A stretch of 46,714 nucleotides of DNA from an uncultured Methanosarcinales archaeon (GCA_964434475.1 CAYSVS010000004.1:1-46714), one strand, 5' to 3'; numbered from the stretch's first letter, positions 2,744 to 38,901 are shown. The notes: generated by a model from the letters alone, not told the origin. Numbers and translations: made by a program.

Positions 2744-2744
2744 G

Positions 2745-16868: not shown

Positions 16869-19800
16869 CTATTTTAGCTTCTTATCATAATTATTTTTCA
16901 TGTCTTTAAAGCCTTTAATCTTGTTCTCTATATCTTCTTTTAAATTTTTCATGTCTTTGTTTCTTCTGGCTCTTTTTATCTCTTTTTTGATTATATCCTT
17001 TACTATAAACCTAGGCCACCCTTTCTTGACTATTGCGTTTTCCATGGCTTTTACATCTTTTTTATATTCTATGGATTTTCTTACAAATTCTTTTAGCTTG
17101 CTTGTGTCTATATCTTTTGTATGTTTTTCTCTCTTCTTCACAAAAGGTTGTTTTAGTCTATTACTGTATTTTTTGAGTATGTTGTTGTACTTTGTATTTA
17201 ACTGCTTTTTCCTTTTTATTTTGAAAGGCCATATCTTTAGTCCAACCTTTTTTCTTTCCATTTTTCTAGACATCTCTATGTTTTGAATGTATTCTTTGTT
17301 CTTTTTGATCATATTTTTGTAATTATTTTCTATATTTTCTAATTCCTTGTTCCCCTTATATTCTCTTTTTTTTTCTGGCTCTTCTTTTCTTTCTATATTT
17401 CTCTTGATTTTCGGCCATCTTCTTTTAGCTAACAGGAATTGTTTGTTTTTTTTAAGCTTACTTTCAAAGAATTCCAATTGTTTCTTCATACTTCTGAAGC
17501 CTTTGCTTTCTTCATAACTTTTTTCTGTCTTTTTTTCTATCTTATCTTTTTTCCTGAAAACCTGTTTTTTTATTTCAGGAAGCTTGTTTTTGATCTTCAG
17601 GTATTGCTTATTATCTTTCAGCATATTATCATAGAAGTGCATTCTTGCCTTGAGCTCTTTCTGTTCTTTTGTTTCCTTTTGTTTTTGTTTAGGCTTTTCT
17701 TTATGTTTAAAGACTTCAAATATCTTTCTTTTAAGCTTCGGCCATCTTCTTTTCACTCTCAGGAATTCTTTGTTTTTTTCTAATCTGCTTTCTATATGCT
17801 TCATCTGCTCCTTGAGTGCAATTTCTTCTTTAGTCTCTTTGGTATATCTAGTCTCTTTTGTTTTCTTATGTTTCTTGAAGACGTTTCTCTTTATTTCAGG
17901 AAGCTTGTTTTTGATCTTCAGGTATTGCTTATTCTCTTTCAGCATATTATCATAGAAGTGCATCCTTGCCTTGAGCTCTTTCTGTTCTTTTGTTTCCTTT
18001 TGTTTTTGTTTAGGCTTTTCTTTATGTTTAAAGACTTCAAATATCTTTCTTTTAAGCTTCGGCCATCTTCTTTTCACTCTCAGGAATTCTTTGTTTTTTT
18101 CTAATCTGCTTTCTATATGCTTCATCTGCTCCTTGAGTGCAATTTCTTCTTTAGTCTCTTCAAGATGTTTCTCTTTTTTCTCTTCTTTTTCTTTTGGTTT
18201 AAATAGCTTTATTTTCAGTTTAGGCCATAATCTTTTAGCTTTCATATATTCTCTGTTTTCTTTCAACAACTCATCATAATAATCAAGCTTTGTCTCCAGT
18301 TTCTTATGCTCTTTTGTTAGCGTTATAGGTCTTGATTCCTCAACCTTCTTCTTGGATTTTATCATGCTTTTCAGCTTAGGCAGGCTTATAGATTCCAATA
18401 TATCTTTAAGATGCCTTTCGTTCTTTTTCAGTTTGTCTTCATAACGCGTTAACTGCAGTTTAAGATGTTCTTCTTCTTTTGTTATCTTTCTTTCTTCTTT
18501 TTTAGCCAGCTTTTTTACTTTTCTTTTCTCTATTATCTCAAGCATCTCAAGTTTGCTTCTTAGATGTTCTATCTTGTGCTTGATAAGTCTATTATATCTT
18601 GTTATTTCTTTCTCTAAATGTTTTATAGAACTCGCTATCGCCTGTTCTGTTTCTATCGCTACTTCTTCTGCATTTTCTATGCCTGTTAATATTTTTCTTT
18701 TTACTCTTCTTTCCAGCAGTTTCAGATTTTCTTTTACGTGCTTGTTGAATCTTGTTATGCTTTTTATTATATTTTCTTCTATTGCAAAAATATTGTATTC
18801 TATATCTTCTGCTTTTTGTTTGATTTTTTTCTTTGTTCTTTTTCCTGTTTTTTCTATCTCTTTATCAAATGCTTTTATCTTTTCTTTAACAATTTCTGTA
18901 ATAGAAGGTTTTTCTTTCAATGCTTTGAAATACATTATCTTGATAAGTTTCTTGTCGTACTTGTTCTTCAGCATATTGTACACATATCTGAAGTGATATC
19001 CTTTCATAACATACCTTTTCACTCTTCTGTGCATCATCGAATAGATATGTTTTTGTTTCTTGATTGTTCTTGACTGAATTCTTATGCCTTTTCTCTTTAA
19101 TCCTTCCTTGATTTCCTGTTCATCATAGCCTAGAACAAACCACATAAGTATCCTTTTCTTTGTCTCTTTGAATGTCTTGATATATATAGCAGTCTCAGCA
19201 TACTTCTGTTGCAGGTATTGGTGATTCACTGATACAGAAAGCAATAAAAGCAGCGCTATAAGATACATTATCTCCTTTAGATAGCCCTCTCCCACAACCA
19301 CTCCTGGTATCTCTTCTCTTGGTGGTTTGATTATCAATCTAATCTCTTCTTTTTCTTCTTCCTCCATCACAATCTTTTCTTTTTCTTCCCCTGGCTCGAT
19401 TGTTATCGCAAAATAGCTCAACCCATACGTTCTTGCTTTGAAATAATAGTATTTCTTATCTTGTTTTATCAGGTTTGTCTTAAGTTTTCCCCACTTGTTT
19501 CTGTACTTGTTCAAATAAACATTTCCAGGACTGCTTATAACATCAATATCTTCTTTCTCTATCTTAAAATAAAGATCTGCATATCTAAGATTATCGTAAT
19601 CTCTTAATGTTTGGATTTTGAAATACGAGTATGCGTTTTTTATTATTGGAACTTTCTGATCTTCTTCCATATCTATCTTGACTATTGTCAACCTGAATCC
19701 GCTTATATCTCCGTCAGCAACTACATTAGCCCCATACATCTCCATGCAGTTTATGTTCCAATTAAACTCTTCTCCCTGCGATAAGTAAACTAATGGAGTC

Positions 19801-22800
19801 ATATAGGCGCATCCACTTACATATCCCCCAATACCTGCTCCTGATCCTGATGGTGCAGTGCTAACTTCTCCTGGACAAACTCCGCAGTCAATAGGGCAAT
19901 TTTCGCAAGTTTCTCCTGGCTGACATATGCCGTCTCCGCAGCAGTCAGGATCTATCAAGACACATACAGGATCAAACGCGCTGCATACGCCATCGCTTAT
20001 ATTATTGCAGCTGCACTTTTCCATGCTTGGATCACATTGCAATCCTATGCTGCATCCATCCTGTTTTAGATTACAATCCGCACAATCACAGCTTTCATTA
20101 AATCCGCAGATATTATCGTTGTTGCAGTTACTAGGTCCAGTATCTCCACATGTTCCGTTTCCTTGACATATCTGTCCGCTTAAACAGCCTGCATCATCAG
20201 GGCAAGTGATGCAGTTTTCTCCTGCATCAATTACACCATCTCCGCAAGAATCACACACATCTCCAACTCCGTTGGCGTTGCTGTCATTTTGGTCAGGGTT
20301 ATATATGCTTGGACAATTATCACAAGTTTTTCCAACAAAGAAATTACTTGATATGCCTTCTGTATATCCATCCATGTCCATATCCATAAATGCGCAGCTC
20401 CATCCTGTGCTTTTGCTCGATGCATTATTGCACACAAAGAACAACTGTTTATCACTGACTACGCTGTAATTGTTAGAATCAGTCGCATTTATCCTAATGA
20501 AATACATGCTGTCGTTATTGTATATGTTTGCAGGCAGACTTACTGCTTTAGTGCAAATATTGTTTGAGTCTCCAAAGTTGTTAGCATATACTGTATTGTC
20601 ATTTTCATCCAATATCTCTATATTGCAGTTAACTATGTTGTCTGCAGTAAAGTACGCGCTTATCGAATCTAGTACATTTATCGAACCATTATAATATGTT
20701 CTGTTAAGCTTTGTTGTTTGGTTGAATTTAGGAATTATTTTTACAGTGATATTATCCTCTATAACATTTCCTTTGTTTCCTGCTATATCATATGCATACG
20801 CTTTAACATTATAGGTTCCTGCTTCATTTATACCATAGCTTAATTTGCAGTTGTTTACAGTTGTTGAATACGCTTTTTGTCCTGTTATATTTATTACGCA
20901 ATAAGCTATGCTTCCTTCTCTTGCTTGGTTTTCAATAATAGGGTCTGAACCATTGACCAATATCTGCAATGCGTCTCCTTTCTCTAATAAGCCATCGCTT
21001 GGTTCGATAAATATCCCATTCATCACAGGCGCATTATTGTCTACAACTTCTATATTCAATGTTTGTTCTCCTGTAAATTGCTGTGTTCCTGCTAAGATGC
21101 CATAGCTTGTATCATTTAAAACAACATTAGCAGAAGGTATCATTACTGTTATGCTAAACATAGAAGTAGATGATCCACTATAGCTGGCCAATACAAATCC
21201 GCTTGTTGGATTCTTTTCTGTAAAGCTCCATCCGGCAGGTGAAGATGAGATAATCTGTGCATTGGCTATATCTGCGGCATTAGGCAAAGGATTAGCAGCT
21301 GTTCCTATGAATATGTCAGCAGCATTTGTAGCCTCAGCATTATAGCTGAACGTAATATAATAATCATTGCCTTTTTTCAACCTTCTTGTGTAGCTTGTTA
21401 TGCTTAGTTTGCTGTTTAATCCGCCTGTCATTGTACTGCTTAAGTTTTCTGCATCATGGCTTATTGTTCCTGTGCCTGTTATTGCTGCAATTTCGCAGAT
21501 TGCATAACAATCTTCATCATAGCAGTCTATTTTGCCATCAAGATCATTATCTATATTATCATTACATGTTGCTTCAACAGCTTCATAATTGCACACTTTA
21601 CCATCAGCTCTGAATATAACATTATTACAATTCCCGTCCCTGCAATCTGTATTTCCATCATTATCATTGTCAACGCTATCGCTGCAATAAAATGTTGTAT
21701 TTTCAGATATTGTCTGTGTGCAAGTGAATCCTTGCCTGTTCTTGAGCATATTGTTGCAATCTGTATCTGCGCAATCTATATTTCCGTCATGATCATTATC
21801 TATTCCATCAAAGCAGCTGTTCCAAGTAGTATTCTCTATGCTTGGGCAAGGTCCGCAATTTCCGAACTGTTGATGACAATCCTGATCATCGCAATCCATT
21901 TTTAGCGGAGGATAAGTATTCAGAACATTATCTCCTGCTCTTTCATCGTTGTCAAAAACATCATTACAATAATGATCAGACAATCCTAATGTGTATAATG
22001 CCTGGTCAAACTCTGTCTGCTCACATGTTTTTCCTGTGGCAGGATTATAAACTCCATAACAATCAGGATCATCGCAGTCAAATATTCCATCTAGATCATT
22101 ATCTATTCCATCAAAGCACCAGGTTGGCTGCGGATTATATCCTTTGTTTCCGTAATCTGCGCCGCTGTATTCATTTATAGCACACGAGAAATTATGCGTG
22201 CCGTTACCGAAGTTTCCGTCCGCATTGACATTATTATAGCAGTCATAATCACTGCAATCAGCTCCAAGATTGAATGTCCTATATCCGTCATTTTTATACG
22301 ACCATCCTGTCGCATCCAATTGGTCTCTATCATTGTCAAAATTGTCCATACAATTTGTTTCTTTTCCAAGCTGGCACTGTCCAATACCTTCTCCTGAAAC
22401 ATTTATGTATGTGTTGTTGCAATCAACATCATAGTTTGCAGTTGGCGCTGCACAATCTATTCCTGCACCTCCTGCATTGTTTAATGTAAGTCCGTTTGCA
22501 AGATAATTATCCATGTCATTATCTACACTATCATAGCACCAGTTGTATTCTGCAGGACAGTATGTTGCATTACACATTCCGCTTTGGTTGCTCTCTTTGT
22601 TCGGCACTACAATTTCATATTTACAATTATAATCGTCATAATCTCCGCTGTATGTGAAATTCGTTCCATAAAATAACTCATGCCCTTGTTCATTATTGCT
22701 CCAGCCTGGTTTATACATAGTATTTGCATCCCTATCTCTGTCGTTGTCAAAGCTGTCATTACATGTTAATTCATACGCAAGCTCACACCTTCCACTGCCG

Positions 22801-25800
22801 TCTGCAAATGTCAATTCAGTAAGATTACAATCTTCATCAGGTTCATAATCTACCCATCTGCAATCTATTCCTGCGCCATAGCTTGTATTCTGCGTACCAT
22901 AAAGATAATCAGTTGTTCCAGGCCTTTGGCTGAATTCATAATAATCATAATCATTGTCTATGTTGTCTGAACAATTATTGCCTTTTTCTTGTGTTACTCC
23001 AACACTCCTGCAATGTTTTTGACAGTCATACTCTGCTGAACTGAAAGTAGGCAATGTTTTTGAATTGGCCATTGTGTCTATGTCGCAGTCTGCTTTCTGG
23101 AACGCGTCATTGTTGAAGCCATCATTACAATTAAGCTCAAACTCATATTCGCATAACAAGGAATCATTGGTCAAGCTTCCGATGCTCATGTTGCAGTCAG
23201 GATCCTTGCAGTCATACAGATCTATGACTCCGTAAACACCATAAGCTTCGCTGTTTGGCCTTATGTCATAAGGTCCAGATACATAATCCCAATCATTGTT
23301 TATGCTGTCTGCACAACTATATTTGCTTATGTTCTCTTCCTCAGGACATCCTTTATCACTTTGCCTGAAACAATCGCTTATATCGTGGCAATCAGTTCTA
23401 TCAAACGCATCATATATGTTTGAATCCCAATCATTATCATACTCATCAGTACAATTGCTTTCATTTTGATAATTGCATTCTGCTTGCTTTGAAGTAAAGA
23501 AATTATTTTGCAAAGGTCCTATGCTATTGTTACAGTCTATGTCATAGCAATCTTTATTATCATCCAAACTTGTTTTACCTAAAATATTATTGCCCATGTC
23601 CAGATCATTATTGCTGCTGTCCGCACAAACCTGTCCGCTAAAGCTTGCAGTTTCAGATTCGTCATCATTGCTCAATGCAGCATTGTCAAAGTATATCCTG
23701 AACTTGGTTTGAGTAGAATCCTCTTCGCCATTATATGCTATTGCCACTTCTATTTCTCTTGAGAAGCTGCTGCTTATCTTAGCTTCATCAAACGTAATGT
23801 TGAAAACAACATCTATGGCGCCGGTGTTGCAATCTCCGCTATAACAACTATAACCTACAGTATATACTCCGTCTGCAACATTTGTTATCTGCAGTGATTT
23901 ATTTCCTGGAATTGTTCCATAGTAATTTGCGGCTTTTACATCAGGTAAATTCTTTATGCTTATTGTGAAAGGTCCGCTTTGCCTACCGCTTGTTTTTGTC
24001 AATCTTATCTTAAATTGTCCGGTTGGCTTATGGTTTATCGTATTTATGTAATTAGTATTTGTCTTGGTTCCTGTTGTACCTGAATGTAAATTATCTGTAT
24101 CTGCATAAGTTACAGCTCCTGTGATTAAATTTGTTATGCTTTCGATTCCTATGGCTAGACTTGTAGGTCCGAATCCTACGAAATACCTGTTGCTGAAATC
24201 TGTGTCACAATGCGGATCAGATATTCCTATACAGTCATCATCATCACAGTCTATTGCTCCATCGCCGTCATTATCTATTCCGTCTTTACAGTTTCCTTCA
24301 ACCTTTGCTCCGCCTTTTGTCCTCAATGCTCTTCTTTGGTCTCCTTCATATGTGCATGATGCAGTGTTGTTCATGAACTGGAATTTGTTATCATTCTTAC
24401 AGCTTATGGCTCTTGTTACATCGTCCAATGTCCAACTATTATTGTGCACATATATCCTGTTGTTTTTTGTCTCATTATATGTTATATTTCCGTTGCTCTT
24501 CAAACTGCAGTTCAGCAAAGCCCAAGGCAGATAGCCGCCATTATCTACATTATAATTTATTTTGTCTGCTGTTGTAATTGTATAATTTAAGGAATAATCT
24601 TCATACATTTTTGTTATTCCTGTTATGTTTATTGTCTTTGTATCATTTCCTGTCCTGAATACACATTCTAATGTCTCTGTTGAAAATAAGCTTAGATTTT
24701 TGAAATCAATAAAGAAAGTATGCAAATGAGTTCCAGCCAATCCTGCTGCATAAGGTTCATAGATTCCGTACGGAGGAATTATACTGTCCCATGGCGGATA
24801 ACCAAATAAGCTTAAGTTCTGCACTTTATCCTGGCTGGTGCTTCCGCTTCTGCAGAATATCGCTGCTGTTATATTGGCTTTTCCTCCGCCTATAGCTGTT
24901 ATGTTAAATGTTGTAATGTTGTTTTGGTCTTCTGTTAAATTTCCTATATATTTCGAGTCTCCATTATTGTTGTTGAATTTTGTTTCATCATAATATATGC
25001 TTATGTTGCAATAGCTTAAGTTGCCTTCTAATGCGGTTGCATTAACAACAACATTAAATGTTTGACTTCTGTTGATTATAGTATTGTTCAAAGGGTTAAG
25101 TATCTTTATTGTGCTGTTTCCACCTGTGTTTAATATGGTAAAGTTAACACTTTCGCTGTCATTGACCAATCCTGCACTGTTGTTTGCTATTATCAATGCA
25201 TTATATACTCCAGTCATCAAAGTATTGTTGAACAACAATTGATAATTTTCTTCAGTATAGTTTTCAAGATTATACTCTATTGCTTGCTCAGTTACTGGAT
25301 ATGTTATTCTTACTATTGCACTCTCTACTCCTGTAGGATCTATTATTCTTGCACTTATGTTTACTGTTTTTGTTTGATTAGTTGCATTAGGCTCTGCTTT
25401 TACGTCCAAAACCATAGGTGTACCATTATAATAAAATATCCAGCTATATTCATAAACTGTATTGCCAAACTCATCTTTTGCTAAAGCTATAACTGTATTG
25501 TTTCCAGATTTTAGGTTTATTGTTGCATTATAATCTGATGTTTCTGTTATTGAGCTTATGTTGTTTACTTCAACGTCTGATCCTGACTCATAAACAGTTC
25601 CTATTACAGTATAATTTTTTGTTGCAACATATTTTTCTCCATTGCTTATGGTGATAACTGGCGGCTGCTGGTCCAATCCTTGTATGCTTGAGTTAAACAA
25701 TTTTTCATAATAATATTTGCCTGCTTCTACTTTAACTTTATAGTTGATAAACAACCCTGGCTGCTTTGCTTTTACAGTAAATTTATGGCTGCTGTTTGCA

Positions 25801-28800: not shown

Positions 28801-31800
28801 AACGTAGTGTCTTTCTTGCTTTTTATAACTCCTGTATCTCCGTTTTCAGGCAACCATTCAAATCTTGTTGTATCATTTAATACGCAATTGGTAAGATCAA
28901 AAGGATAGTTTTGAGCGCCATTCTCGCCTATGTATATGTTATAGCTAGTATATGCTAATCCATTTTGATTAAATATTTCTATGGTGTGTGTTGTGCTTAT
29001 TCTGCTGTATCTTTTTTGTTTGACTTGTATTTCAGAAACCAAATTTTTTGTTTGATAGCTTGGCACATTGATGCAAGCTCCATTAGGATTCCAATCTAAT
29101 GCATGGCAGCTTCCTACACCAAAGCAATCATTGTCTATACAATCCACATAATTATCTTGATCATTATCTATTGCATCATTGCATGTTGTTTCTGTGCCAT
29201 ATTCGCATGCAACTCCGTATGGTCCTAGTTTAGTGTTGCAGTTGGAGTCTTTACAATCTGCATTTCCGCTTCTATCATTATCAAATCCATCTGAACATAA
29301 TGCATCTGTATCTTCTGAAGTTTCGCATGTTGCAGCATATGTTAAGCTTCCTAGCATCCCATAACAATCACTATCATCGCAGTCTATATTACTGTCCCTA
29401 TCATTATCTGTGCCATCTGCACATGAATCGTATGTTATATTTTCTACGCTTGGACAAGGTCCACAATTACCAAATTTCTGATTGCAATCACTGTCTGCAC
29501 AATCCTTTGGCCCGTCTCCGTCATCATCTTGATCATTATTACAATATTGATAGCCTAATGTAAGGTTAAACTCTTGCTGTGCACATGTTAGACCTGTGTC
29601 TGGATTAATTGCACCCAAGCAATCTATGTCTGCACAATCTATTATATAATCAAGATCATTATCTATTCCGTCAAAGCATTGCGAATCATTTATAGTGCCG
29701 TCAGCCAGCCTATTTTCTTTAGCAGGACAGTTAGGATTTCCTGCGCAGTCATAATCCCTGCAATCCTTTCCTGTGTTAGGATCAGTATCCATGACTCCTT
29801 GTCCATTATCATAATCATTATCTATGCCATCACTACAGTTAAGCTCTACACTTGGACATGGATGGTTAACAGGATCATCGTTTATTCCTCCTTGTCCCCA
29901 ACAATTTGTTGTATCGTAGCAATCTGTTCTTCCGTCCCTATCATTATCAAAGCTGTCTTTACATGTTGTTGGATAATTGGCTGCTTTACCCTCTTGTCCG
30001 TACTCGCAATAAACTCCTGGTCCTCCTAGCTTGCCATCGCAATCAGGATCAGCGCAGTCTATCTTTCCGTCTCCATCATTATCAAAGCCATCATTGCAAG
30101 TTACCTCTGTTCCGTATTCACATACTGCACTTGATCCAACATTTCCTATCTCTCCATCACAATTGATATCTCTGCAGTCAAAGTAATTGTCTAAGTCATT
30201 ATCTACTGCATCAGCGCAAGGATAATTCAATCCTATGTCTGCATAAGTTGAGCTTTCATCATCATTTGAAGGTGCATTGCTGTCAACATACAATTCATTA
30301 TTCAGCACATCTCCAGTTCCTCCATATTGTACTATGCTCATGTTGAAGTGATGCAATATTTCTGCAGCACTATTTAGATTGACATACATAACTATCTTAT
30401 CCCATCCAGTATTTCCTGAAGGGGCTGTTGTCTTGTATGTTGTGCTTGAATCTAGAATAGTATCAGTATCATATGGATATGTTACAGGATCAGCAGTATA
30501 ATTATATCTTCCATAAGTTGAAAATGTAGGCATATCTGTTATAGCTCTTCCGAAAGCTTGTCCACCGACAGAATATCCACTGTCAAACAATATCTTGAAT
30601 TTGCCATTAGGTTGTACATGCTCTGTATAATAATAGCTTAATGTTTTCCCTCCTACTGATGTTGTGCCTTGGCAGATGTTTCCATTGCACGGGGTAATAT
30701 CATAAGCAGCCATAACTGTAAATGCATTTATTATGAAACAACCGAACAATATCACTGCAGTTATTGATGTAATGTATTTTCTTGATAATGTTGAGTTAAC
30801 GCTATATGCTAGCATGCTTGTTAATGTAAACATGAACAACCATACCAAAGGCATGAATCCTGGCACTTTAGGATTTATAGGATTAAAGTATGAAATCACT
30901 TCTGCTAATTCGCTATGCCTTGCAGTATAATTGAAAGCTCCATATGTTATGCCATTACAGCTTATATCATCAAAGTCAGTATATCCGTCTGCGTTATTAT
31001 CTATGCCGTCTGAGCATTTGCCTTCTACTTTTATGTCTTTATACATGTTCATTGCAAAAACAACATCTCCGTCATAATCGCATTTTACTGTGTTGTTCAG
31101 ATATTCTCCTTTTTGTCCTAACCAACATTCCCAAGCGTTGAAAGCGTCATCATAGTCATTGTCAAAACCATACCACTCATTATCGTGAACATATATTCTC
31201 TTGTTTTCAGCTTTATTGTTTTCATTATCTCTATGTTCTTGGTTGTCTGTTTTTAATGTCTCATTCTGCGAGAATATTGAGCAGTTATGCACCAGCCATG
31301 GCTTGTTTTTATCTATCGGATCTGTTATTTTTATAGTGTAGTTAAGATATTCGACTCCTTCAATTATTGTTGTTGTTGTCTTGTTTAAGCTAAATAGGCT
31401 GTTGTCAGATCTTTCTATCACACACTCTATTATATTACCATTATATGTTGTATAGTTTTCAAATGTGATGTTGAATTCAAACAGATGCATGCCGAATAAT
31501 CCTGCTGCTTCTGGCTCATAAACACCTTCAGGATAATTTATTTGAGTCCAATTCCCTTTTCCACCATACCAACTGCTATTATCTCCACAAGTTACATCGC
31601 CATATACTGGATGCGCTTGTCCATAATCATAACATATTGTATTATACACACAATCTGTTGCATCATCGCAGCATCCAACACTTGCATCGTTTGCAGTTCC
31701 GTTTGAATATCTGATAAATTCATGATGGTCATCCTGACAGCATCTTGATAATGCTGTAAACCACATAAATGTTGGTTCTGCTTCACAATATGATTCGTTT

Positions 31801-34800
31801 AGATCTGGGTCATACCATAGTCCCTCTAAACAATAAGAATTGTTCATCTCATAAGCTATTGTGTTATTATCTATACAATGATTAGTGCTGTTTATACAGT
31901 CAAATTGACTATTGCAGCAAGCAGCTTCTGCACCGCAGCTTGTTCCTGTGTTAGGCGCTCCTTCACATATCCTGTGATTTTCTCCATCATCATCTTCACA
32001 GCAGCTTAAGGCTGTACCTGTGCTATATTCTCCGAATGCTACAATTTCTCCGCCTGATACCCAATTCAATCCGCAGCTTGAACATGACGCTGAGTCTGTA
32101 TCTGAGTCCTGCCAATCACCAGTATTACACACTGAATAACCAAATCCTAAACTGCATTCCCCTTCAGAATAACACATTCCTGAATTATCTACGCAGTCAT
32201 TCGTATCATTACAGCAGCTGTCGTATGTTGCTTGGCAAGTTTGTCCTGTGTTAGGCGCTCCTTCACATACTGTATAATATTCTGTTGCATCATCACCGCA
32301 GCAGTTAGGCTCGTATTTTGTCTCTTCATATGCATCTGAAAAACTAAAATCATTTGTAGGACCATAGCAGTTGAATCCGCAGCCGCTTCCCCAATCTGTT
32401 GCTGTACAGTTTGCAGGATCATTGTCTGGAGTGGATTGCTCTGTCAATCTACAGCATACTAGTGTGCTGTAAGGCAATGCATATTCACAAGCAGTTATAT
32501 GTGAATTTGTGCTTGATAGGTTTGATTTTGTCACCATGCAATATTCATATCCTGCATCAACACAATCCTGCTGTGCATCATTGCTTGATTTAGTTTCATA
32601 GCTGCATTCAACGTATTTATCATCTGCATGCAGGCAAACATCCCAACTATATGTTGAGTAATGGTACAATTCAGCGTGTGCGTTCGTATAATTGTTCAGT
32701 GACAATACCCCTCCAAAATTATCCTCACATGCATTGCTTAAATTAAATCCTGAAACGCATATTTGATTGGTTAAATTGTATTGCATGCCTGCGTGCGCAT
32801 TATATATTCCGCCGGTTTCATTCGCTATAGACATCAATGAGAATTCTCCTGCGCCATTACAATCTGCTGCTGTAAACACGCCAGTAATCTCATCACAACT
32901 TTCAACACACTGTCCGTATTGATTTAGGAAATCATTAGGATTATCGCAGCATCCTGTTTCTATTCCATTGCAGCTTTTTCCGTTTTCTGGTCCTGCATAG
33001 TATTCTCCTGTATCGTCTCCGCAGCATTCATCTGTTATGTTATTTAGATAATCTCCTATAGGGTATTTTTCACCAGAATGCGTCCAGTAATGTAAAGTGC
33101 AGCCTGTGGAATCTTCACAATATGTTTGATCATCATCCCTATCATACTTTCCGCATAATCCATGGCAATAATAATCATCAGGCGTACAAGTGTAAGGTAG
33201 ATAATCATCACATTCATCACTTTCAATTCCGCATCCGTCTTGGCATGTGTTGTCATAATCTGAACATAATGCCATACCATCTCCGCATATTGAGCAGTTG
33301 AAGCAAACGTCTTGATCTGTGTTTTTTCCTATTCCGTATTCATTATCACAGCTGCCATACTCTTGTCCAGGAGTGTATGCTGCACACTGCTCATCATTTG
33401 TACAGCTTTGTCCTAGATGCAGTTTACAAATTCCTGCTCCATCGCAAGCGCATGCATCTCCTATGCACCCATCTCCTGTATAAGTACATTCTCCTAGATC
33501 TTCCATATTTCTTGAAACAAACGCATTACAGTTAACATCTCCGTCATTGTTTGATGATGTTCCTCCGCAAACATTACATACTCCGCATTGAGCATCTACT
33601 CCATCACTTGAACCTGCTACCCAAGTTCCTGCACCATCACAGTATTTGTTAGCATATTCATCACATTGTGTTAATGAAGTGCATCTATGCCAAGTGTCTT
33701 GCGCAGAGCATAAGTAATCAGAATTACCATTGGTTCCAACATCGCTTGTATCGTAACCTTGATGGTCTGCATTATTTTCTGAGCATTCTTTATTTGTTGC
33801 AGCACAGTAATAGTTGCTTGAGTCGATTTCTTTTCTGCAGTTGTTGCTTGTGCAGTCGCTGTTCTCATCGCAGCTTCCACCATTGCTGACATCTGCTAAG
33901 CAAGAGCTTCCATCACAGTGATATCCTGTAGCGCATTTGTTGTCGTCGTTTGCGCAGTCTGTGTAGCAAACGCTTGTAGATTGTCTTGCATAAGGAGAGC
34001 AATCCTGGCAAGCAACTCCGTTGCCGCAGATGTCTGTTGCGTCTAATGTACATGTTGCGCCGTTAGCTTCGCTTCCACTCTGGCATGTAATGTCTCCATG
34101 ATAGCAAGTTGCACCTGAAACATAACCATTTCCGTATAGTGTAGTTATTGAGTCGCTTGCAGCAGTTCCATCTGTACAGGTAGCAGCTCCGCTTCTGCAG
34201 TCAATTGTTGTTGAAGTTTGCAAATTGCCAGTATAATAACCCCATCCGTAGACGGTTGAAGCATCTCCGTCGGATGCGCTTGATGCAGTACATTCAATAT
34301 TTCCATAATAACAAGTTCTAGTTGTTCCACTTCCTTGTAAGTTGCCATTACCTATCAATGATGAAGTGCCTTGATCTGCTCCATTAAGGCATCTTCTACA
34401 GTTTAGCGATGTTGACGAACTTAATGTCCCTGAATAGGTTGACCAATCATCTGATGTTGAATCATCTCCGCAGCACAAGTTTCCTCCTGTGCCTAATGTC
34501 GCTATCCATGTTTGCGCATCGCATGCTCCTGAACTGGTTGTACAATAACTGCTGCTGGTGTCTCTGTCTCTATCAGTATATGAACAATAATCATTAAGAG
34601 TATTGTAACAATAATAATCTCTAAATGTGGTTTGTCCTGAAACACAAGTGTCATACGTATTACAATCTGTCGCTGCTGTAGAATACGATGCACCGTTTGC
34701 TAAATAATCTGTTAATGTGTCTCCTGTACAATAATCTCTTCTTGTTGTTGAAGTGCATGATGAACCTGAACACGCATCATTATAATCTGTAACATATCCT

Positions 34801-36182
34801 CCAACTAATGGGAAGTTTCCTCCGTCGCTGTCTATGCTGTTTGCAGAACCGCAATCAGTATATATTGCTATAGTATCTTCTCCATTACACCTATATACAT
34901 CATTATTGTAACATTCATAGTTTCCTGTGTTCATTCCGTTGCCATTTGTATATGCGCATTCATAGCTACTTGCTGTACAGTAACTGTTTCCGTTTGCAGC
35001 AGGATTGCAATCTCCGCTTGTGCAGTCGCTATCTGATGTGCATTGTTGTCCGTTTGCAAGTAATGGTTTGCCACGTTTTTCAACATATTTATTAGGGTAT
35101 TGCATACCTCCTATATATAAATAAGGATCACTTCCCACTTTATCTACAATAACACTAATTAATCTTTGGCTAGGAGTATCCTGCCACGCCACATTTCCTG
35201 TACTTATACTCCTTTTTTGAAGTAAGTTATCTGCAACATTATATACTGCATTATCACTTACTGCTATTGCTTTTCCAGCCGGTAAATATTGGGAACCTGC
35301 GTCTGTTTTAAACCACACTAGTGAACCGTCTCCTTTATTCCTTTTTTCTATCCTCGGAGATCCATATGTATAAATATATGATGGATCCGCAGTTATACTA
35401 TTAAGAGTAGCATCACTCACCGTTATTACTCCTCCTGTACCAAAATCTGCTACAAGGCCTAAATTTGATATATATCTTTTTTCAATCCTCCAAACAGTAT
35501 CTTGCCATTCTGCAAGATATATGTAATTGCTATCAATAACTAAATCCCTTATCGCATCTAGCTCTACTGTAGGGTTGTTTGTTATTCTTTTTATCAGTGC
35601 ACCAGTACTTTTATCTCTTTTTTCTAGAATCATGGCATAATTCCGAATACCATCCACTCCATAAACTCCTCCTCCATAAATATAATTGCTGTCAACATCT
35701 ATGGCTTGGAAACCGAGATCATAATCATTTGGACAATATTTAACTCTTCCGTCGTTGTCAAAACTAGTAATTAAACTCCCTGTTGATTTGCTCCTTTTTT
35801 CAATAAACAAGCAGTTAGGATTTGTAAACTCATAACTGCCTGATATGTACAAATAATCAGCATCCGCTACAATGCCTCCATACTCATAACTGTTTGTTGT
35901 AATTGTCCACATAATTTGGCCATCAGACTTTCTAATTTTTTGTAGTTCTGAATCTGATGAAGTACCTCCTGTATTGCCTGTAACATAAATGTAATCACTA
36001 TCTTGTACACTTTCTACTTGTTCGTATTTATTGCTGCCTGTATAACTCCACGCAATAGCATCCTCATCAAATGTCTGTATCTCATACCCTCCACTCTCTG
36101 CAACAAACATTCCTGCATTCATCACAAGTAAAACTATCAAAATCAAAACATTCGCTATCCGTTTGATATTTGCTTTACTCAT
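16869..36182 (-). CDS. Giant (6437 aa) membrane-anchored Cys/Asp-rich surface protein
   Basis: Signal peptide; beta-propeller-like IEKR repeats; many CxDxxDNDxDGxxDCxDxDC repeats; TSP3-like 'DNCP..YNPDQ.D...DG.G..C'; CARDB/Ig-like domains; PGF-pre-PGF-like domain ('TYGLSYFAI'); C-terminal TM and K/E tail. Confidence 0.92.
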   Translation of the reverse strand: MSKANIKRIANVLILIVLLVMNAGMFVAESGGYEIQTFDEDAIAWSYTGSNKYEQVESVQDSDYIYVTGNTGGTSSDSELQKIRKSDGQIMWTITTNSYEYGGIVADADYLYISGSYEFTNPNCLFIEKRSKSTGSLITSFDNDGRVKYCPNDYDLGFQAIDVDSNYIYGGGVYGVDGIRNYAMILEKRDKSTGALIKRITNNPTVELDAIRDLVIDSNYIYLAEWQDTVWRIEKRYISNLGLVADFGTGGVITVSDATLNSITADPSYIYTYGSPRIEKRNKGDGSLVWFKTDAGSQYLPAGKAIAVSDNAVYNVADNLLQKRSISTGNVAWQDTPSQRLISVIVDKVGSDPYLYIGGMQYPNKYVEKRGKPLLANGQQCTSDSDCTSGDCNPAANGNSYCTASSYECAYTNGNGMNTGNYECYNNDVYRCNGEDTIAIYTDCGSANSIDSDGGNFPLVGGYVTDYNDACSGSSCTSTTRRDYCTGDTLTDYLANGASYSTAATDCNTYDTCVSGQTTFRDYYCYNTLNDYCSYTDRDRDTSSSYCTTSSGACDAQTWIATLGTGGNLCCGDDSTSDDWSTYSGTLSSSTSLNCRRCLNGADQGTSSLIGNGNLQGSGTTRTCYYGNIECTASSASDGDASTVYGWGYYTGNLQTSTTIDCRSGAATCTDGTAASDSITTLYGNGYVSGATCYHGDITCQSGSEANGATCTLDATDICGNGVACQDCSPYARQSTSVCYTDCANDDNKCATGYHCDGSSCLADVSNGGSCDENSDCTSNNCRKEIDSSNYYCAATNKECSENNADHQGYDTSDVGTNGNSDYLCSAQDTWHRCTSLTQCDEYANKYCDGAGTWVAGSSDGVDAQCGVCNVCGGTSSNNDGDVNCNAFVSRNMEDLGECTYTGDGCIGDACACDGAGICKLHLGQSCTNDEQCAAYTPGQEYGSCDNEYGIGKNTDQDVCFNCSICGDGMALCSDYDNTCQDGCGIESDECDDYLPYTCTPDDYYCHGLCGKYDRDDDQTYCEDSTGCTLHYWTHSGEKYPIGDYLNNITDECCGDDTGEYYAGPENGKSCNGIETGCCDNPNDFLNQYGQCVESCDEITGVFTAADCNGAGEFSLMSIANETGGIYNAHAGMQYNLTNQICVSGFNLSNACEDNFGGVLSLNNYTNAHAELYHYSTYSWDVCLHADDKYVECSYETKSSNDAQQDCVDAGYEYCMVTKSNLSSTNSHITACEYALPYSTLVCCRLTEQSTPDNDPANCTATDWGSGCGFNCYGPTNDFSFSDAYEETKYEPNCCGDDATEYYTVCEGAPNTGQTCQATYDSCCNDTNDCVDNSGMCYSEGECSLGFGYSVCNTGDWQDSDTDSASCSSCGLNWVSGGEIVAFGEYSTGTALSCCEDDDGENHRICEGAPNTGTSCGAEAACCNSQFDCINSTNHCIDNNTIAYEMNNSYCLEGLWYDPDLNESYCEAEPTFMWFTALSRCCQDDHHEFIRYSNGTANDASVGCCDDATDCVYNTICYDYGQAHPVYGDVTCGDNSSWYGGKGNWTQINYPEGVYEPEAAGLFGMHLFEFNITFENYTTYNGNIIECVIERSDNSLFSLNKTTTTIIEGVEYLNYTIKITDPIDKNKPWLVHNCSIFSQNETLKTDNQEHRDNENNKAENKRIYVHDNEWYGFDNDYDDAFNAWECWLGQKGEYLNNTVKCDYDGDVVFAMNMYKDIKVEGKCSDGIDNNADGYTDFDDISCNGITYGAFNYTARHSELAEVISYFNPINPKVPGFMPLVWLFMFTLTSMLAYSVNSTLSRKYITSITAVILFGCFIINAFTVMAAYDITPCNGNICQGTTSVGGKTLSYYYTEHVQPNGKFKILFDSGYSVGGQAFGRAITDMPTFSTYGRYNYTADPVTYPYDTDTILDSSTTYKTTAPSGNTGWDKIVMYVNLNSAAEILHHFNMSIVQYGGTGDVLNNELYVDSNAPSNDDESSTYADIGLNYPCADAVDNDLDNYFDCRDINCDGEIGNVGSSAVCEYGTEVTCNDGFDNDGDGKIDCADPDCDGKLGGPGVYCEYGQEGKAANYPTTCKDSFDNDRDGRTDCYDTTNCWGQGGINDDPVNHPCPSVELNCSDGIDNDYDNGQGVMDTDPNTGKDCRDYDCAGNPNCPAKENRLADGTINDSQCFDGIDNDLDYIIDCADIDCLGAINPDTGLTCAQQEFNLTLGYQYCNNDQDDDGDGPKDCADSDCNQKFGNCGPCPSVENITYDSCADGTDNDRDSNIDCDDSDCYGMLGSLTYAATCETSEDTDALCSDGFDNDRSGNADCKDSNCNTKLGPYGVACEYGTETTCNDAIDNDQDNYVDCIDNDCFGVGSCHALDWNPNGACINVPSYQTKNLVSEIQVKQKRYSRISTTHTIEIFNQNGLAYTSYNIYIGENGAQNYPFDLTNCVLNDTTRFEWLPENGDTGVIKSKKDTTFYGEDIKLTCTLDATPVASETYLIDLLTRIDDVSTPSTGNTFTAASLEDTAPTISEIEIGGELGNNVNVTYGSSIAFRAIPSNDASGICQCTFDLNGAQHSTSGNGNCIYTENNYITDIDSLQIKATAEDGADNIGAEGGTRTIAVNVQPIAQSISVDKTKPFYRSTESLKINSSFITATNNVFNGNCNVAIYNSSKEFNESFTVNKEGSNNIAYCNKTIDLTTLNDGMYFIKTNITDNDNDAAESNFAVFYVCNNLSSKGDGWSCAFADFDQDGAVEGIFTELYGTTLTCDNCPDTYNPDQLDTNADGIGNICSDYENPKVENLTITNNTLVQHDIVNISANVTDDRELDTVLVNIIYPGGFVNNSFVAANISDIYTYSFTDTMLTGQYNVTIIANDTFNNINNTEKINFTVSTYPGFGNTTTKIILPEDRASYYEGSNFNLSVQINSTGNVSNCTVKIYPINTTVITALKNNKTIIELNDSSTILKFTMNATKFGFSDIGAQTSCWYGGSSEDTVHNIEVNLCGNGDIDSGETCITCPKDAGCMRGYNCLVNGSCSIEENTNCNNDGICQANESCSCADCDGEQDGCYYGDVCNLTQEKCDCNYISDGICPTQDYYCRILDPDCTNLCGDGTVDAGETCQTCPDDAGCTDGLVCQENATCGLVNMAQCNNNGICEVNETCNCSDCYGKQDSCMFGLICSSTNELCSCNTEVDFICPTGDEYCQQFDPDCPQVLFSIEHNATGTLHKNDLVLITMNATVNGQTSNFNYKDISLDIPLYDDAIHGDDLSNDGKYKIEFVIVPGMFDNYSIEGYFKDIVGVVGRINGTNYLNISSPERDVKITDIVISNTTSMTTKTVYVNASVTNTGTQDENNVVVKLYVDNIEKDSQTKLLSTGEKRKVEFSYTADTTSFDNIEVRASQLPMETNTKDNMAKSKVPINHSFDSNISININTDGQFLWINDTFDVNVNITNTTTSIQNVNVSIQIQEPYHESLNNTKKVNLANSSHKFTVKAKQPGLFINYKVKVEAGKYYYEKLFNSSIQGLDQQPPVITISNGEKYVATKNYTVIGTVYESGSDVEVNNISSITETSDYNATINLKSGNNTVIALAKDEFGNTVYEYSWIFYYNGTPMVLDVKAEPNATNQTKTVNISARIIDPTGVESAIVRITYPVTEQAIEYNLENYTEENYQLLFNNTLMTGVYNALIIANNSAGLVNDSESVNFTILNTGGNSTIKILNPLNNTIINRSQTFNVVVNATALEGNLSYCNISIYYDETKFNNNNGDSKYIGNLTEDQNNITTFNITAIGGGKANITAAIFCRSGSTSQDKVQNLSLFGYPPWDSIIPPYGIYEPYAAGLAGTHLHTFFIDFKNLSLFSTETLECVFRTGNDTKTINITGITKMYEDYSLNYTITTADKINYNVDNGGYLPWALLNCSLKSNGNITYNETKNNRIYVHNNSWTLDDVTRAISCKNDNKFQFMNNTASCTYEGDQRRALRTKGGAKVEGNCKDGIDNDGDGAIDCDDDDCIGISDPHCDTDFSNRYFVGFGPTSLAIGIESITNLITGAVTYADTDNLHSGTTGTKTNTNYINTINHKPTGQFKIRLTKTSGRQSGPFTISIKNLPDVKAANYYGTIPGNKSLQITNVADGVYTVGYSCYSGDCNTGAIDVVFNITFDEAKISSSFSREIEVAIAYNGEEDSTQTKFRIYFDNAALSNDDESETASFSGQVCADSSNNDLDMGNNILGKTSLDDNKDCYDIDCNNSIGPLQNNFFTSKQAECNYQNESNCTDEYDNDWDSNIYDAFDRTDCHDISDCFRQSDKGCPEEENISKYSCADSINNDWDYVSGPYDIRPNSEAYGVYGVIDLYDCKDPDCNMSIGSLTNDSLLCEYEFELNCNDGFNNDAFQKADCDIDTMANSKTLPTFSSAEYDCQKHCRSVGVTQEKGNNCSDNIDNDYDYYEFSQRPGTTDYLYGTQNTSYGAGIDCRWVDYEPDEDCNLTELTFADGSGRCELAYELTCNDSFDNDRDRDANTMYKPGWSNNEQGHELFYGTNFTYSGDYDDYNCKYEIVVPNKESNQSGMCNATYCPAEYNWCYDSVDNDMDNYLANGLTLNNAGGAGIDCAAPTANYDVDCNNTYINVSGEGIGQCQLGKETNCMDNFDNDRDQLDATGWSYKNDGYRTFNLGADCSDYDCYNNVNADGNFGNGTHNFSCAINEYSGADYGNKGYNPQPTWCFDGIDNDLDGIFDCDDPDCYGVYNPATGKTCEQTEFDQALYTLGLSDHYCNDVFDNDERAGDNVLNTYPPLKMDCDDQDCHQQFGNCGPCPSIENTTWNSCFDGIDNDHDGNIDCADTDCNNMLKNRQGFTCTQTISENTTFYCSDSVDNDNDGNTDCRDGNCNNVIFRADGKVCNYEAVEATCNDNIDNDLDGKIDCYDEDCYAICEIAAITGTGTISHDAENLSSTMTGGLNSKLSITSYTRRLKKGNDYYITFSYNAEATNAADIFIGTAANPLPNAADIANAQIISSSPAGWSFTEKNPTSGFVLASYSGSSTSMFSITVMIPSANVVLNDTSYGILAGTQQFTGEQTLNIEVVDNNAPVMNGIFIEPSDGLLEKGDALQILVNGSDPIIENQAREGSIAYCVINITGQKAYSTTVNNCKLSYGINEAGTYNVKAYAYDIAGNKGNVIEDNITVKIIPKFNQTTKLNRTYYNGSINVLDSISAYFTADNIVNCNIEILDENDNTVYANNFGDSNNICTKAVSLPANIYNNDSMYFIRINATDSNNYSVVSDKQLFFVCNNASSKSTGWSCAFMDMDMDGYTEGISSNFFVGKTCDNCPSIYNPDQNDSNANGVGDVCDSCGDGVIDAGENCITCPDDAGCLSGQICQGNGTCGDTGPSNCNNDNICGFNESCDCADCNLKQDGCSIGLQCDPSMEKCSCNNISDGVCSAFDPVCVLIDPDCCGDGICQPGETCENCPIDCGVCPGEVSTAPSGSGAGIGGYVSGCAYMTPLVYLSQGEEFNWNINCMEMYGANVVADGDISGFRLTIVKIDMEEDQKVPIIKNAYSYFKIQTLRDYDNLRYADLYFKIEKEDIDVISSPGNVYLNKYRNKWGKLKTNLIKQDKKYYYFKARTYGLSYFAITIEPGEEKEKIVMEEEEKEEIRLIIKPPREEIPGVVVGEGYLKEIMYLIALLLLLSVSVNHQYLQQKYAETAIYIKTFKETKKRILMWFVLGYDEQEIKEGLKRKGIRIQSRTIKKQKHIYSMMHRRVKRYVMKGYHFRYVYNMLKNKYDKKLIKIMYFKALKEKPSITEIVKEKIKAFDKEIEKTGKRTKKKIKQKAEDIEYNIFAIEENIIKSITRFNKHVKENLKLLERRVKRKILTGIENAEEVAIETEQAIASSIKHLEKEITRYNRLIKHKIEHLRSKLEMLEIIEKRKVKKLAKKEERKITKEEEHLKLQLTRYEDKLKKNERHLKDILESISLPKLKSMIKSKKKVEESRPITLTKEHKKLETKLDYYDELLKENREYMKAKRLWPKLKIKLFKPKEKEEKKEKHLEETKEEIALKEQMKHIESRLEKNKEFLRVKRRWPKLKRKIFEVFKHKEKPKQKQKETKEQKELKARMHFYDNMLKENKQYLKIKNKLPEIKRNVFKKHKKTKETRYTKETKEEIALKEQMKHIESRLEKNKEFLRVKRRWPKLKRKIFEVFKHKEKPKQKQKETKEQKELKARMHFYDNMLKDNKQYLKIKNKLPEIKKQVFRKKDKIEKKTEKSYEESKGFRSMKKQLEFFESKLKKNKQFLLAKRRWPKIKRNIERKEEPEKKREYKGNKELENIENNYKNMIKKNKEYIQNIEMSRKMERKKVGLKIWPFKIKRKKQLNTKYNNILKKYSNRLKQPFVKKREKHTKDIDTSKLKEFVRKSIEYKKDVKAMENAIVKKGWPRFIVKDIIKKEIKRARRNKDMKNLKEDIENKIKGFKDMKNNYDKKLK
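17569..18160. repeat. Near-perfect intragenic direct repeat (271-bp copies, 321-bp period)
   Basis: 17569-17839 vs 17890-18160; two mismatches seen; 107-aa period in the protein tail. Confidence 0.92.
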
Positions 36183-38001: not shown

Positions 38002-38522
38002 CTTTTCTTCACCCCTTTGTTGTATGATGACCAGATTGTTCTTGGATCTCTTTTTAGCAAATTAGCAATATCTTTGAATTTCATATGCTTGTTTTCTTTC
38101 AAGAATATAGTAAGTATTTCTAATGGCCCTAGGTTTCTGTTATGGAATATTTCAATAGGTATTTTGATTTCAGAATCTATTTCTGCGAATTGTTTAGGAT
38201 ATTTTTTCTTTGCTTTGTCATATGTATTCCAGATTGTTCTTTGGTCTCTCTCAATTAGTTTTGCTATTTCAGAAAGTTTGAATTGTTTGTTTTCTTTTAG
38301 GTATTTTACTATGCTTTCTAGAATGCCTAATTTATCATTGAATATGTTTGTTGGAATGAATTCTAATTGCTGGTTTTCTTCACTAAATATCTTGTCAAAT
38401 TCTGCTTTGTTCTCTGTTTCTAGCTCATTTAGGAGTTTATGTATTTGCAATATTTTTTTAAGGGTTTTAGGACTAGCAGAATTAAGCAAATTCTCTGTTT
38501 TAATAAGTTTTTTTTTACCCAT
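37998..38522 (-). CDS. Tandem HTH DNA-binding protein
   Basis: Two repeats of 'LG.LE....LKENK..K...IA.L..RD.RTIW..Y.K'. Confidence 0.8.
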   Translation of the reverse strand: MGKKKLIKTENLLNSASPKTLKKILQIHKLLNELETENKAEFDKIFSEENQQLEFIPTNIFNDKLGILESIVKYLKENKQFKLSEIAKLIERDQRTIWNTYDKAKKKYPKQFAEIDSEIKIPIEIFHNRNLGPLEILTIFLKENKHMKFKDIANLLKRDPRTIWSSYNKGVKKR

Positions 38523-38546
38523 TAAATAAGTAAAACCTCTTTTAAT

Positions 38547-38700
38547 CTTATTTAGTAAGTGTTTTTATACTTGCTAAATGTTTCTTTTGCTTTAAAACTT
38601 ATTTAGTAAGTATTTTTATACTTGCTATGTGCGATTACTTATTTATTCAATAAGTATTAATTATACTTATTAAATAATATAGAAACTTATTAAATAGGTA
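38547..38700. promoter_or_regulatory. Repeated operator-like palindromes upstream of the HTH/surface-protein operon
   Basis: 30-bp direct repeat 38547-38576/38598-38627 (one mismatch), each containing AAGT(A/G)T-N4-ATACTT; a third AAGTAT-N5-ATACTT at ~38652-38668. Confidence 0.65.
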
Positions 38701-38901
38701 TTATATAAAAGTTTTGATTTAAATTACTTATTAGATAAGAAAAAGAATAGAAACATAATCAACTAAAGTATAATATATTGTTTATTTTTGATTTGAACTT
38801 AAGGTTGATCTATTGTTTTTGCACATATTTCAAGAATTATGGCTAGATGGTTAATTATGATGTTGTTGAAGATTCATAGTGGCAGTAATAATAACTTAGG
38901 A

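Follow-up and report, generated by a model that had tools for sequence, protein, structure and literature searches.

The 46,714-nucleotide contig CAYSVS010000004.1, deposited as an uncultured Methanosarcinales archaeon, carries on its minus strand three overlapping genes which encode, in this order, a helix-turn-helix (HTH) protein of 174 amino acids (aa), a putatively secreted protein of 608 aa (p608) and a giant protein of 6437 aa. The entire contig (C4 of genome G000) is here referred to as the window, and positions are counted from its first letter. Comparison with other genomes points to the HTH protein as a member of a class-wide family specialised in genes for giant surface proteins. 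With moderate confidence, the locus as a whole is best explained as an HTH-controlled operon for an anchored giant surface protein and a secreted accessory. The organism appears to be a Woesearchaeales-type DPANN archaeon, placed there because the relatives of its HTH protein are titled Woesearchaeota, Pacearchaeota, Nanoarchaeia or Nanoarchaeota.

The three genes overlap by 4 bp and 8 bp and together span 21,654 bp, or 1.4% of the genome. At the junction between p608 and the giant (GAGGAGAAATGAGTAA) a Shine-Dalgarno-like GGAG is followed by overlapping ATG and TAA codons, the usual sign of translational coupling, and, given the local base composition, a run of 6437 stop-free codons would arise by chance with a probability of about 10^-225. 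Two 38-nt direct repeats (38539-38576 and 38590-38627, 92% identical) lie upstream, each with an AAGTAT-N4-ATACTT palindrome surrounding a TATAAAAA-like, that is TATA-like, box, and 18 inverted-repeat pairs are found upstream of the operon. The word AATAAGTA has 14 copies in the window where 4.6 would be expected, five of them falling within 38525-38732, and six TACTTA/TAAGTA sites (38527, 38607, 38636, 38651, 38664 and 38725) overlap or flank TATA-like boxes. An earlier note on this DNA had described three overlapping genes preceded by repeated palindromes, and the open reading frames (ORFs), both overlaps and the 38-nt repeats with their palindromes were all recovered here. As one part of the explanation favoured above, and with the same moderate confidence, the three genes would form a real, co-transcribed operon.

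The linkage of the HTH family to giant genes was followed in two samples, one of 20 loci from relatives picked solely for their available downstream sequence, and one from a scan of one genome per species which returned 209 HTH relatives, the best 80 of these loci being used for the linkage counts and 74 of them parsed. In the first sample the ORF next to the HTH gene measures 770-3899 aa at 15 of the 20 loci; at two others the long ORF is the second or third gene, one locus runs off its contig and two have no long ORF. In the species scan 54 of the 74 HTH genes are free-standing, and their next ORF reaches at least 700 aa in 24 cases, lies off the locus in nine, is complete and shorter than 700 aa in 16 and is lacking in five. 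The HTH gene thus stands directly upstream of an ORF of at least 700 aa at 24 of the 45 informative free-standing loci, a size reached by 72 of the 1304 ORFs in G000. The count is conservative, since the locus in the window would itself be scored as shorter because of the 608-aa gene that comes next. The proteins encoded downstream of HTH genes have a hydrophobic start, are rich in N-glycosylation sequons, and many end in a transmembrane (TM) helix and a tail. A BLASTP comparison of the giant in the window to 19 of these HTH-downstream giants gave no homology save for one weak match of Cys repeats, and the only giants related to it are two from the same genome, on contigs C3 and C6.

At the remaining 20 of the 74 parsed loci the HTH domain is fused to the C-terminus of a long ORF, which in 14 cases measures 1239-3435 aa. 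All six fused giants inspected are built alike, with a hydrophobic segment at about residue 95, a very large region rich in sequons, a short GAWTIKILLVAL-type hydrophobic stretch, a run of Arg/Lys and the HTH. As the HTH is preceded by a membrane stretch and an Arg/Lys run behind the ectodomain, it would lie on the cytoplasmic side, and these natural fusions are the strongest argument that HTH proteins and giants work together. An HTH profile search of the tail of the giant in the window, and of the other giants in G000, found no such domain. The fused giants L063-L114 (e.g. L064 4955-11050 and L095 1877-10390) are each followed by a secreted paralogue, about 300-330 aa long, of their own membrane-proximal domain.

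A short sequence element accompanies the family. Each of the four HTH genes in G000 is preceded by its own repeated element with the common core ACTTAC/GTAAGT. In other species, the 250 bp upstream of 46 free-standing HTH genes hold 138 TACTTA/TAAGTA sites, against 9.2 expected from the whole-locus frequency (an enrichment of about 15-fold) and, when the regions are shuffled, 18.9 on average and 35 at most; at 37 of the 46 loci at least two sites are present. The fused giants carry 28 sites in 11 upstream regions, in a fixed layout at about -58 and about -6 relative to the start codon and separated by a TTTATAAG-like (TATA-like) box near -27. Clusters of at least four sites occur at three places only in G000, all of them upstream of HTH paralogues. 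The repeats look like an autoregulatory operator, at which the predicted binding of the HTH protein may bring about repression or activation. The dedicated transcriptional control proposed in the earlier note is thereby well supported by comparison, as the HTH family appears coupled or fused to genes for giant secreted proteins across order and class and TACTTA/TAAGTA clusters recur at HTH loci. When the synteny of HTH gene, 608-aa gene and giant was searched for, the exact order proved not to be conserved even within the genus, and what is conserved is the general arrangement of HTH gene and giant.

The HTH protein (20.7 kDa, isoelectric point (pI) 9.7) had been read as a tandem HTH, and its AlphaFold2 model (predicted local distance difference test (pLDDT) score 90) indeed shows a helical part at the N-terminus, then two three-helix units similar to region 4 of sigma-70, with weak structural matches only: Foldseek lists extracytoplasmic function (ECF) sigma factors, SigR region 4 (root-mean-square deviation 0.7 A over 43 residues, E 0.37), the Tc3 bipartite DNA-binding domain and SETMAR. 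Among 29 family members, Pfam matches were obtained to Sigma70_r4_2 in 24 (at E <= 0.01, best 1.4e-11), HTH_23 in 20, HTH_38 in 17 and HTH_Tnp_ISL3 in four. A bacterial sigma factor was considered and rejected, as the protein has two region-4-like units, no region-2 family was matched and the host is archaeal; to our knowledge, archaea are without sigma factors. The family is present in 29 of 41 close relatives and, often in several copies, in 156 of 301 genomes of a phylum sample (E <= 1e-8), and the genomes with an HTH among the matches listed are all of the same order or the same class. Besides the copy in the window, G000 has three more, of which that on C2 overlaps the start of a 5033-aa ORF, that on C6 lies upstream of a paralogue of p608 and that on C56 sits at a contig end.

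The giant has a predicted mass of 714 kDa, divided into an ectodomain of 612 kDa with pI 4.1 and a tail of 97 kDa with pI 10.1. Hydropathy identifies four hydrophobic segments (residues 9-27, 1773-1791, 1807-1825 and 5634-5652), and all 317 Cys residues and 150 N-x-S/T sequons are N-terminal to residue 5634, with none in the 785-aa tail. This split at the TM helix, together with the contrast in pI, indicates that the ectodomain is exported, carries disulfide bonds and is probably glycosylated, and that the tail is cytoplasmic. The N-terminal head is modelled by AlphaFold2 (31 relatives, pLDDT 85.5, predicted template modelling score 0.88) as a beta-propeller, with designed 8-blade propellers and BamB as best Foldseek matches (E 1e-12 to 1e-11; to 1e-9 when WD40 proteins are included). 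The Pfam family PQQ_2 is matched at 25 bits, below its cut-off of 27.6, and a search of 1.84 billion representative proteins gave 750 relatives of the head repeat at E <= 0.001, yet this repeat belongs to no curated family. When residues 28-1550 were searched against proteins of 3540-11265 aa, the CYYGDITC-type repeats of the Cys-rich stalk were common to just one other giant, a 4249-aa Woesearchaeota protein which is a partial relative.

Beyond the stalk, the giant contains a large internal duplication of two colinear modules of about 1650 residues (1545-3190 and 3798-5484, 28-56% identity), within which lie 18 acidic double-disulfide repeats (NF033662; 89.7 bits on one half of the protein, 67.6 on the other and up to 111 on shorter pieces, cut-off 41). 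The earlier note mentions neither this duplication nor the mid-protein hydrophobic hairpin. The sole sequence match of this repeat region in the PDB is a C-rich fragment of teneurin-4 (7plp, E 1.9e-4, 24 residues). The teneurin C-rich domain binds calcium; the likeness consists of a single short motif, and calcium binding by the acidic repeats is a prediction. The Cys-rich CG(D/N)G units gave no sequence match in the PDB. Most of the giant, searched as two halves and as 21 overlapping pieces, belongs to no Pfam family, and no recognised lectin or adhesin family of Pfam was found in it. The membrane-adjacent PGF-pre-PGF domain was also recovered in a genome-wide search; two further PGF-pre-PGF proteins are encoded in G000, on C1 (68148-73418, 1757 aa), just downstream of a 5102-aa ORF, and on C10 (19357-23196, 1280 aa). 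In the tail, Lys and Arg make up roughly a third of the residues, and residues 5653-6437 gave no Pfam or NCBIfam match and no Walker A/P-loop. The sequence of parts read in the earlier note (signal, propeller head, Cys-rich stalk, CARDB, PGF-pre-PGF, TM helix and a tail of about 785 aa) was thus matched by hydropathy, AlphaFold2/Foldseek, Pfam and NCBIfam, and the repeats it had called calcium-binding-type DxDxDG repeats correspond to NF033662. Structure prediction by domain, the check it had suggested, returned a beta-propeller for the head and tandem three-helix units for the HTH protein. Across most of the giant gene (window 20000-36000) G+C is 0.34-0.41, compared to 0.25-0.33 in the flanks, a difference possibly due to the Gly/Cys/Asp-rich composition or to foreign ancestry.

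The second gene product, p608 (69 kDa, pI 4.1), has a hydrophobic segment at its N-terminus and carries 29 sequons as well as two motifs of the MopE type (PF11617, residues 243-320; E 3.8e-13, 49.8 bits, cut-off 27). Its relatives in a whole-protein database search share the MopE motif alone, covering 10-43% of the query, and the MopE structure (PDB 2vov) is matched over residues 272-313 only (E 0.02). With similarity confined to this short motif, p608 was rejected as an orthologue of MopE, which is a copper-binding surface protein. A search of 300 other genomes of the order, two congeners included, gave no full-length relative, and the one paralogue is encoded on C6 of G000 itself, just downstream of the HTH paralogue. 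In other genomes, giants directly after HTH genes have the central domain of p608 (residues ~320-470) at their N-termini, for example an ORF of at least 7121 aa in genome G215 (33% identity over 105 residues), so that p608 looks like a detached N-terminal module of HTH-coupled giants. Of the former description as a secreted protein that binds metal and resembles a carbohydrate-binding module, the hydrophobic N-terminus, sequons and MopE motifs agree with the first two elements. For the carbohydrate-binding module an Atlas score of 0.79 to CE2_N clusters is a lead only; there was no Pfam match, and a five-sequence profile of the central domain gave nothing below E 0.18 in the PDB.

The part of the giant exposed to the outside appears to be species-specific. 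In two congeners (99% and 93% complete) nothing matched its first 1523 residues at E <= 1e-5, and the PGF-pre-PGF part is all that matched from the last 1043 residues. A contig of congener G002 which is syntenic with window positions 11000-16830 continues as a minus-strand ORF to the contig end, and the 393 residues available form a tail rich in K and E, in which the tail repeat of the giant recurs (33% identity over 144 residues, E 1e-9). Slot and tail thus persist as the outside changes, the pattern expected for a surface under diversifying pressure.

According to the mechanism we propose, the HTH protein, as a cytoplasmic tandem sigma-70-region-4-like protein, would bind the TACTTA/TAAGTA inverted repeats flanking the TATA-like boxes upstream of its own gene, and this binding would control the operon. 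p608 would act outside the cell as an accessory with its MopE motifs and a central domain like that at the N-termini of HTH-coupled giants. The giant would be exported by Sec to expose a disulfide-rich, probably N-glycosylated 612-kDa ectodomain, arranged from tip to membrane as beta-propeller, Cys-rich stalk, two duplicated modules (acidic repeats and immunoglobulin-like (Ig)/CARDB domains) and PGF-pre-PGF, and would be held by a single TM helix and its 97-kDa basic repeat tail in the cytoplasm. As judged by this architecture only, its most likely role would be the adhesion of a small cell to a partner cell or surface, and host attachment is a plausible reading. The terms invasion and apparatus, used in the earlier note, find no support, as Pfam and NCBIfam searches of the operon proteins found no ATPase, pore, protease or secretion-system domain, only one anchored modular protein and one secreted accessory.

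Several observations weigh against this explanation. DNA binding by the HTH protein is a prediction, its match to Sigma70_r4_2 (21.2 bits; sigma-70 region 4 families PF08281/PF04545) stays under the Pfam cut-off of 25.7, and Foldseek gave no match at E <= 0.001. At 16 of the 45 informative free-standing HTH loci the next ORF is complete and shorter than 700 aa, the loci counted come from related, non-independent genomes so that a binomial figure for them overstates significance, and the 99%-complete congener G001 has no HTH match. The continuity of the locus is that of a single assembled contig, a run search listed no RNA sequencing run containing it (the one DNA run that does is a microbial-mat metagenome, which may be the source), a hairpin with PGF, TM and signal-like parts within the giant suggests gene fusion or processing into two proteins, and neither the ligand nor the partner cell has a candidate.

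A different role for the HTH protein is conceivable, in which the giant is a contact-sensing receptor and the HTH is tethered or sequestered at its cytoplasmic face, non-covalently in the window and covalently in relatives, until mechanical load on the ectodomain, or binding to it, releases or activates the HTH and transcription changes. Signalling of a comparable kind is known from ToxR/CadC, anti-sigma/ECF sigma pairs and Notch. The same HTH domain fused behind the membrane segment of giants (14 ORFs of at least 1239 aa) argues for a physical as well as a functional link, the TACTTA/TAAGTA motif is also found upstream of the fused genes, and the tail repeat is kept in the congener when the ectodomain is not. 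The tail of the giant in the window, however, has no HTH-like domain, no protease or release mechanism was identified, and an HTH-first, overlapping gene order is equally explained by plain autoregulation. We therefore regard this account as unlikely. Its wider form is similarly doubtful, that giants of Woesearchaeales and Pacearchaeales are contact sensors wired to transcription by a tandem sigma-region-4-like HTH, fused behind the anchor or encoded alongside the giant, with each paralogous HTH reading its own TACTTAC operator variant and single giants being switched by contact of their ectodomains. If true, it would amount to an archaeal Notch- or ToxR-like link of partner recognition to gene expression, possibly with one giant expressed at a time.

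The giant could also be structural and, together with the four paralogous or analogous giants of the genome, form a protective or hydrated coat with no specific partner, as is thought of halomucin. The five ORFs above 4000 aa occupy 5% of the genome, the ectodomain is very acidic and rich in sequons, and the absence of recognised lectin and adhesin families in the Pfam search would fit a coat. Nevertheless, a distal propeller tip, Ig/CARDB domains, calcium-type repeats and a single membrane anchor are the usual build of a fibrillar adhesin, and the turnover of the ectodomain at the species level fits a partner-recognition surface better, which leaves a coat with a low probability.

The hairpin in the middle of the giant raises the question whether the 6437-aa ORF stands for two products, a head-stalk protein of about 1800 aa with a PGF-CTERM-like anchor and a protein of about 4600 aa that begins with a second signal peptide. 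A lost stop codon or a sequencing or assembly error would have joined the two, or they would be cleaved apart after translation. Residues 1774-1802, consisting of PGF, a hydrophobic helix and NSTLSRK, match the three-part pattern of a PGF-CTERM sorting signal and are directly followed by a signal-peptide-like segment ending in VMAAYD; module B has no hydrophobic segment at the equivalent position. On the other hand, the reading frame runs unbroken through the hairpin with no in-frame ATG at the second segment, and a pair of hydrophobic helices can simply form a hairpin with both flanks outside the cell. Archaeosortase A (TIGR04125) was not matched in the 97%-complete genome by a search which was positive in two of 14 genomes (Haloferax and Methanosarcina). 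Two products are accordingly improbable, and the simplest reading of the hairpin is a putative in-frame fusion scar of two former genes, whose helices would keep both flanks extracellular. Least probable is that the HTH derives from a mobile element with a transposase-type bipartite HTH, and that the repeats are not operators but serve for recombination or inversion, by which giant genes would be turned on or off: the HTH_23, HTH_38 and HTH_Tnp_ISL3 matches of the family (20, 17 and four of 29), the Tc3 and SETMAR DNA-binding domains in the Foldseek list and a DDE transposase 3 kb upstream are set against the lack of a catalytic domain fused or adjacent to the HTH at any locus examined, a motif fixed around TATA-like boxes beside the start codon, and HTH fusions that are to surface proteins and not to transposases.

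Among known systems, the locus reads most readily beside the giant SPEARE surface proteins of Nanohaloarchaeota, described in excerpts of two papers as proteins of 4000-9400 aa with a signal peptide, a mostly extracellular body, a TM segment near the C-terminus and a cytoplasmic C-terminal part, which holds a conserved restriction-enzyme-like or VirB4/TraG-like ATPase domain, and with at least one LamG domain in the ectodomain; the SPEARE protein from Ca. Nanohaloarchaeum antarcticus was detected by proteomics (PMC6642349, PMC10266531). As far as these excerpts describe it, SPEARE resembles the present case in its DPANN host, a genome of about 1-1.5 Mb with several giant genes making up 4-5% of it, the topology of signal, ectodomain, C-terminal TM segment and cytoplasmic part, and a proposed role in host contact. 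It differs from SPEARE as so described in that its tail is a basic repeat of about 54 aa with no P-loop and no ATPase-like domain, in that no LamG was found by Pfam in the two halves and 21 overlapping pieces, and in that no adjacent secretion ATPase was found; a dedicated HTH partner is not mentioned for SPEARE in the excerpts. Lacking both the ATPase-like cytoplasmic domain and LamG, the giant falls outside the SPEARE family. A SPEARE-like secretion channel was likewise rejected, with no ATPase in the Pfam/NCBIfam searches and no Walker A in the tail.

The RTX adhesins (LapA, SiiE, MpIBP) and the Bap family are long modular rods of Ig-like and calcium-binding repeats with a ligand-binding tip, anchored at the cell surface. 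The giant is like them in being an anchored modular rod of Ig-like and calcium-type repeats with a distinct tip, but it has an archaeal Sec signal and TM anchor in place of type I secretion and outer-membrane retention, as well as a large cytoplasmic tail; it was not assigned to these adhesins, as Pfam and NCBIfam gave no match to RTX repeats, Bap-type domains or a type I signal. In relatives of the HTH protein, the position of a sigma-region-4-like HTH in the cytoplasm behind a single membrane segment is reminiscent of ToxR, CadC and ECF sigma/anti-sigma systems, from which the fusions differ in their extracellular part of 1200-3400 aa, in a tandem and C-terminal HTH and in their archaeal host; in the window the HTH is a separate protein. 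A PGF-pre-PGF domain beside a membrane anchor also recalls the PGF-CTERM/archaeosortase A substrates of Euryarchaeota. The giant was rejected as such a substrate, as its C-terminus is the 785-aa tail, the combination of PGF, helix and basic loop is found only internally (1774-1802) and archaeosortase A was not found.

A dedicated HTH regulator of giant surface proteins in DPANN is apparently unreported so far. Full-text searches of the literature (supplements excluded) returned no report tying an HTH family to giant genes in DPANN, nor the term acidic double-disulfide repeat. How DPANN archaea recognise and keep hold of their partners is largely unknown, most of them being uncultured; giant surface proteins are the usual suspects, and their regulation was not addressed in the literature found. 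The regulator family, its operator motif and the membrane-tethered fused forms are in our view the most interesting part of the locus, as a small, expressible DNA-binding protein, a short motif and natural fusions offer a concrete handle across the class. Motif and HTH together could serve to list a 'contact regulon' for each genome of the group. In vitro work on regulation would need no cultivation, and metatranscriptomes could be read for switching between giants.

Table 1. Features of the operon in the window, parts of the giant with their residues, and other giant ORFs of the same genome.
Feature	Position	Strand	Basis or remark
Tandem HTH gene, 174 aa	37998-38522	-	ORF call
p608 gene, 608 aa	36175-38001	-	ORF call
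Giant gene, 6437 aa, 714 kDa	16869-36182	-	ORF call
Promoter/operator region	38523-38760	-	Repeats, palindromes, TATA-like boxes, TACTTA/TAAGTA sites; operator function predicted
Signal peptide or signal anchor, residues 1-27	36102-36182	-	Hydropathy
Beta-propeller head, residues 28-380	35043-36101	-	About seven YIY..G / IEKR..tG repeats; AlphaFold2, Foldseek
Cys-rich stalk, residues 381-1544, 118 Cys	31551-35042	-	CCGDD and CYYGDITC-type repeats
Module A, residues 1545-3194	26601-31550	-	Acidic double-disulfide repeats ~1980-2370; Cys-rich CG(D/N)G units 2983-3194
Mid-protein hydrophobic hairpin, residues 1773-1827	30702-30866	-	PGF, helix and basic loop, then signal-peptide-like segment
CARDB domain PF07705, residues 3307-3378	26049-26264	-	27.3 bits against cut-off 22.7; flanked by weak Ig-like matches
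Module B, residues 3798-5484	19731-24791	-	Diverged copy of module A
PGF-pre-PGF domain TIGR04213, residues 5514-5594	19401-19643	-	E 8.8e-13, 48.5 bits against 28; membrane-adjacent
C-terminal TM helix, residues 5634-5652	19227-19283	-	Hydropathy
Cytoplasmic tail, 785 aa	16872-19226	-	At least seven copies of a ~54-aa repeat ending (R/K)(W/L)P(K/E)(L/I)K
Other giant ORFs in G000, 4147-5102 aa	C1 52077-67382; C2 55305-70403; C3 348-13436; C6 3132-15572		

Genome G000 measures 1.50 Mb in 148 contigs, is 97% complete and has a G+C content of 33%. The operon has archaeal housekeeping genes as neighbours (TFE, Hjc, tRNA-splicing endonuclease, FEN-1, Trm5, a PAN-type AAA ATPase and an aIF-2B family gene). 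A reduced archaeon, as supposed before, agrees with the size and completeness of the genome, with these neighbours and with the Woesearchaeota, Pacearchaeota and Nanoarchaeota titles of the HTH-bearing relatives. Some third-party assemblies labelled 'uncultured Methanosarcinales archaeon' also carry the HTH family (among 80 records kept), and these labels look doubtful. Five ORFs longer than 4000 aa sum to 5.0% of the DNA of G000; the assembly seems to break at giant genes, as several of the four further giants sit at contig ends. Two genomes of the same order, G215 (C3) and G004 (C1), have open frames of 11,032 and 10,855 aa, which exceed the 9,409-aa protein given as the largest in cultivated archaea in an excerpt of PMC10266531.

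Three ORFs of the window are without a Pfam family, at 7433-8653 (plus strand, 406 aa), 43341-44495 (minus strand, 384 aa) and 45123-46430 (minus strand, 435 aa). A DDE transposase gene is located 3 kb upstream of the operon. Immediately upstream of the promoter region lies an AAA_14/DUF4143 ATPase gene (38902-40188, minus strand); in congener G002 the HTH has a different, non-homologous gene on its upstream side. Further upstream, at 40500-41534 and 41740-42729 on the minus strand, an NTP_transf_2 nucleotidyltransferase with an N-terminal HTH is found beside a 146-aa ORF without a family, possibly a toxin-antitoxin-like pair.

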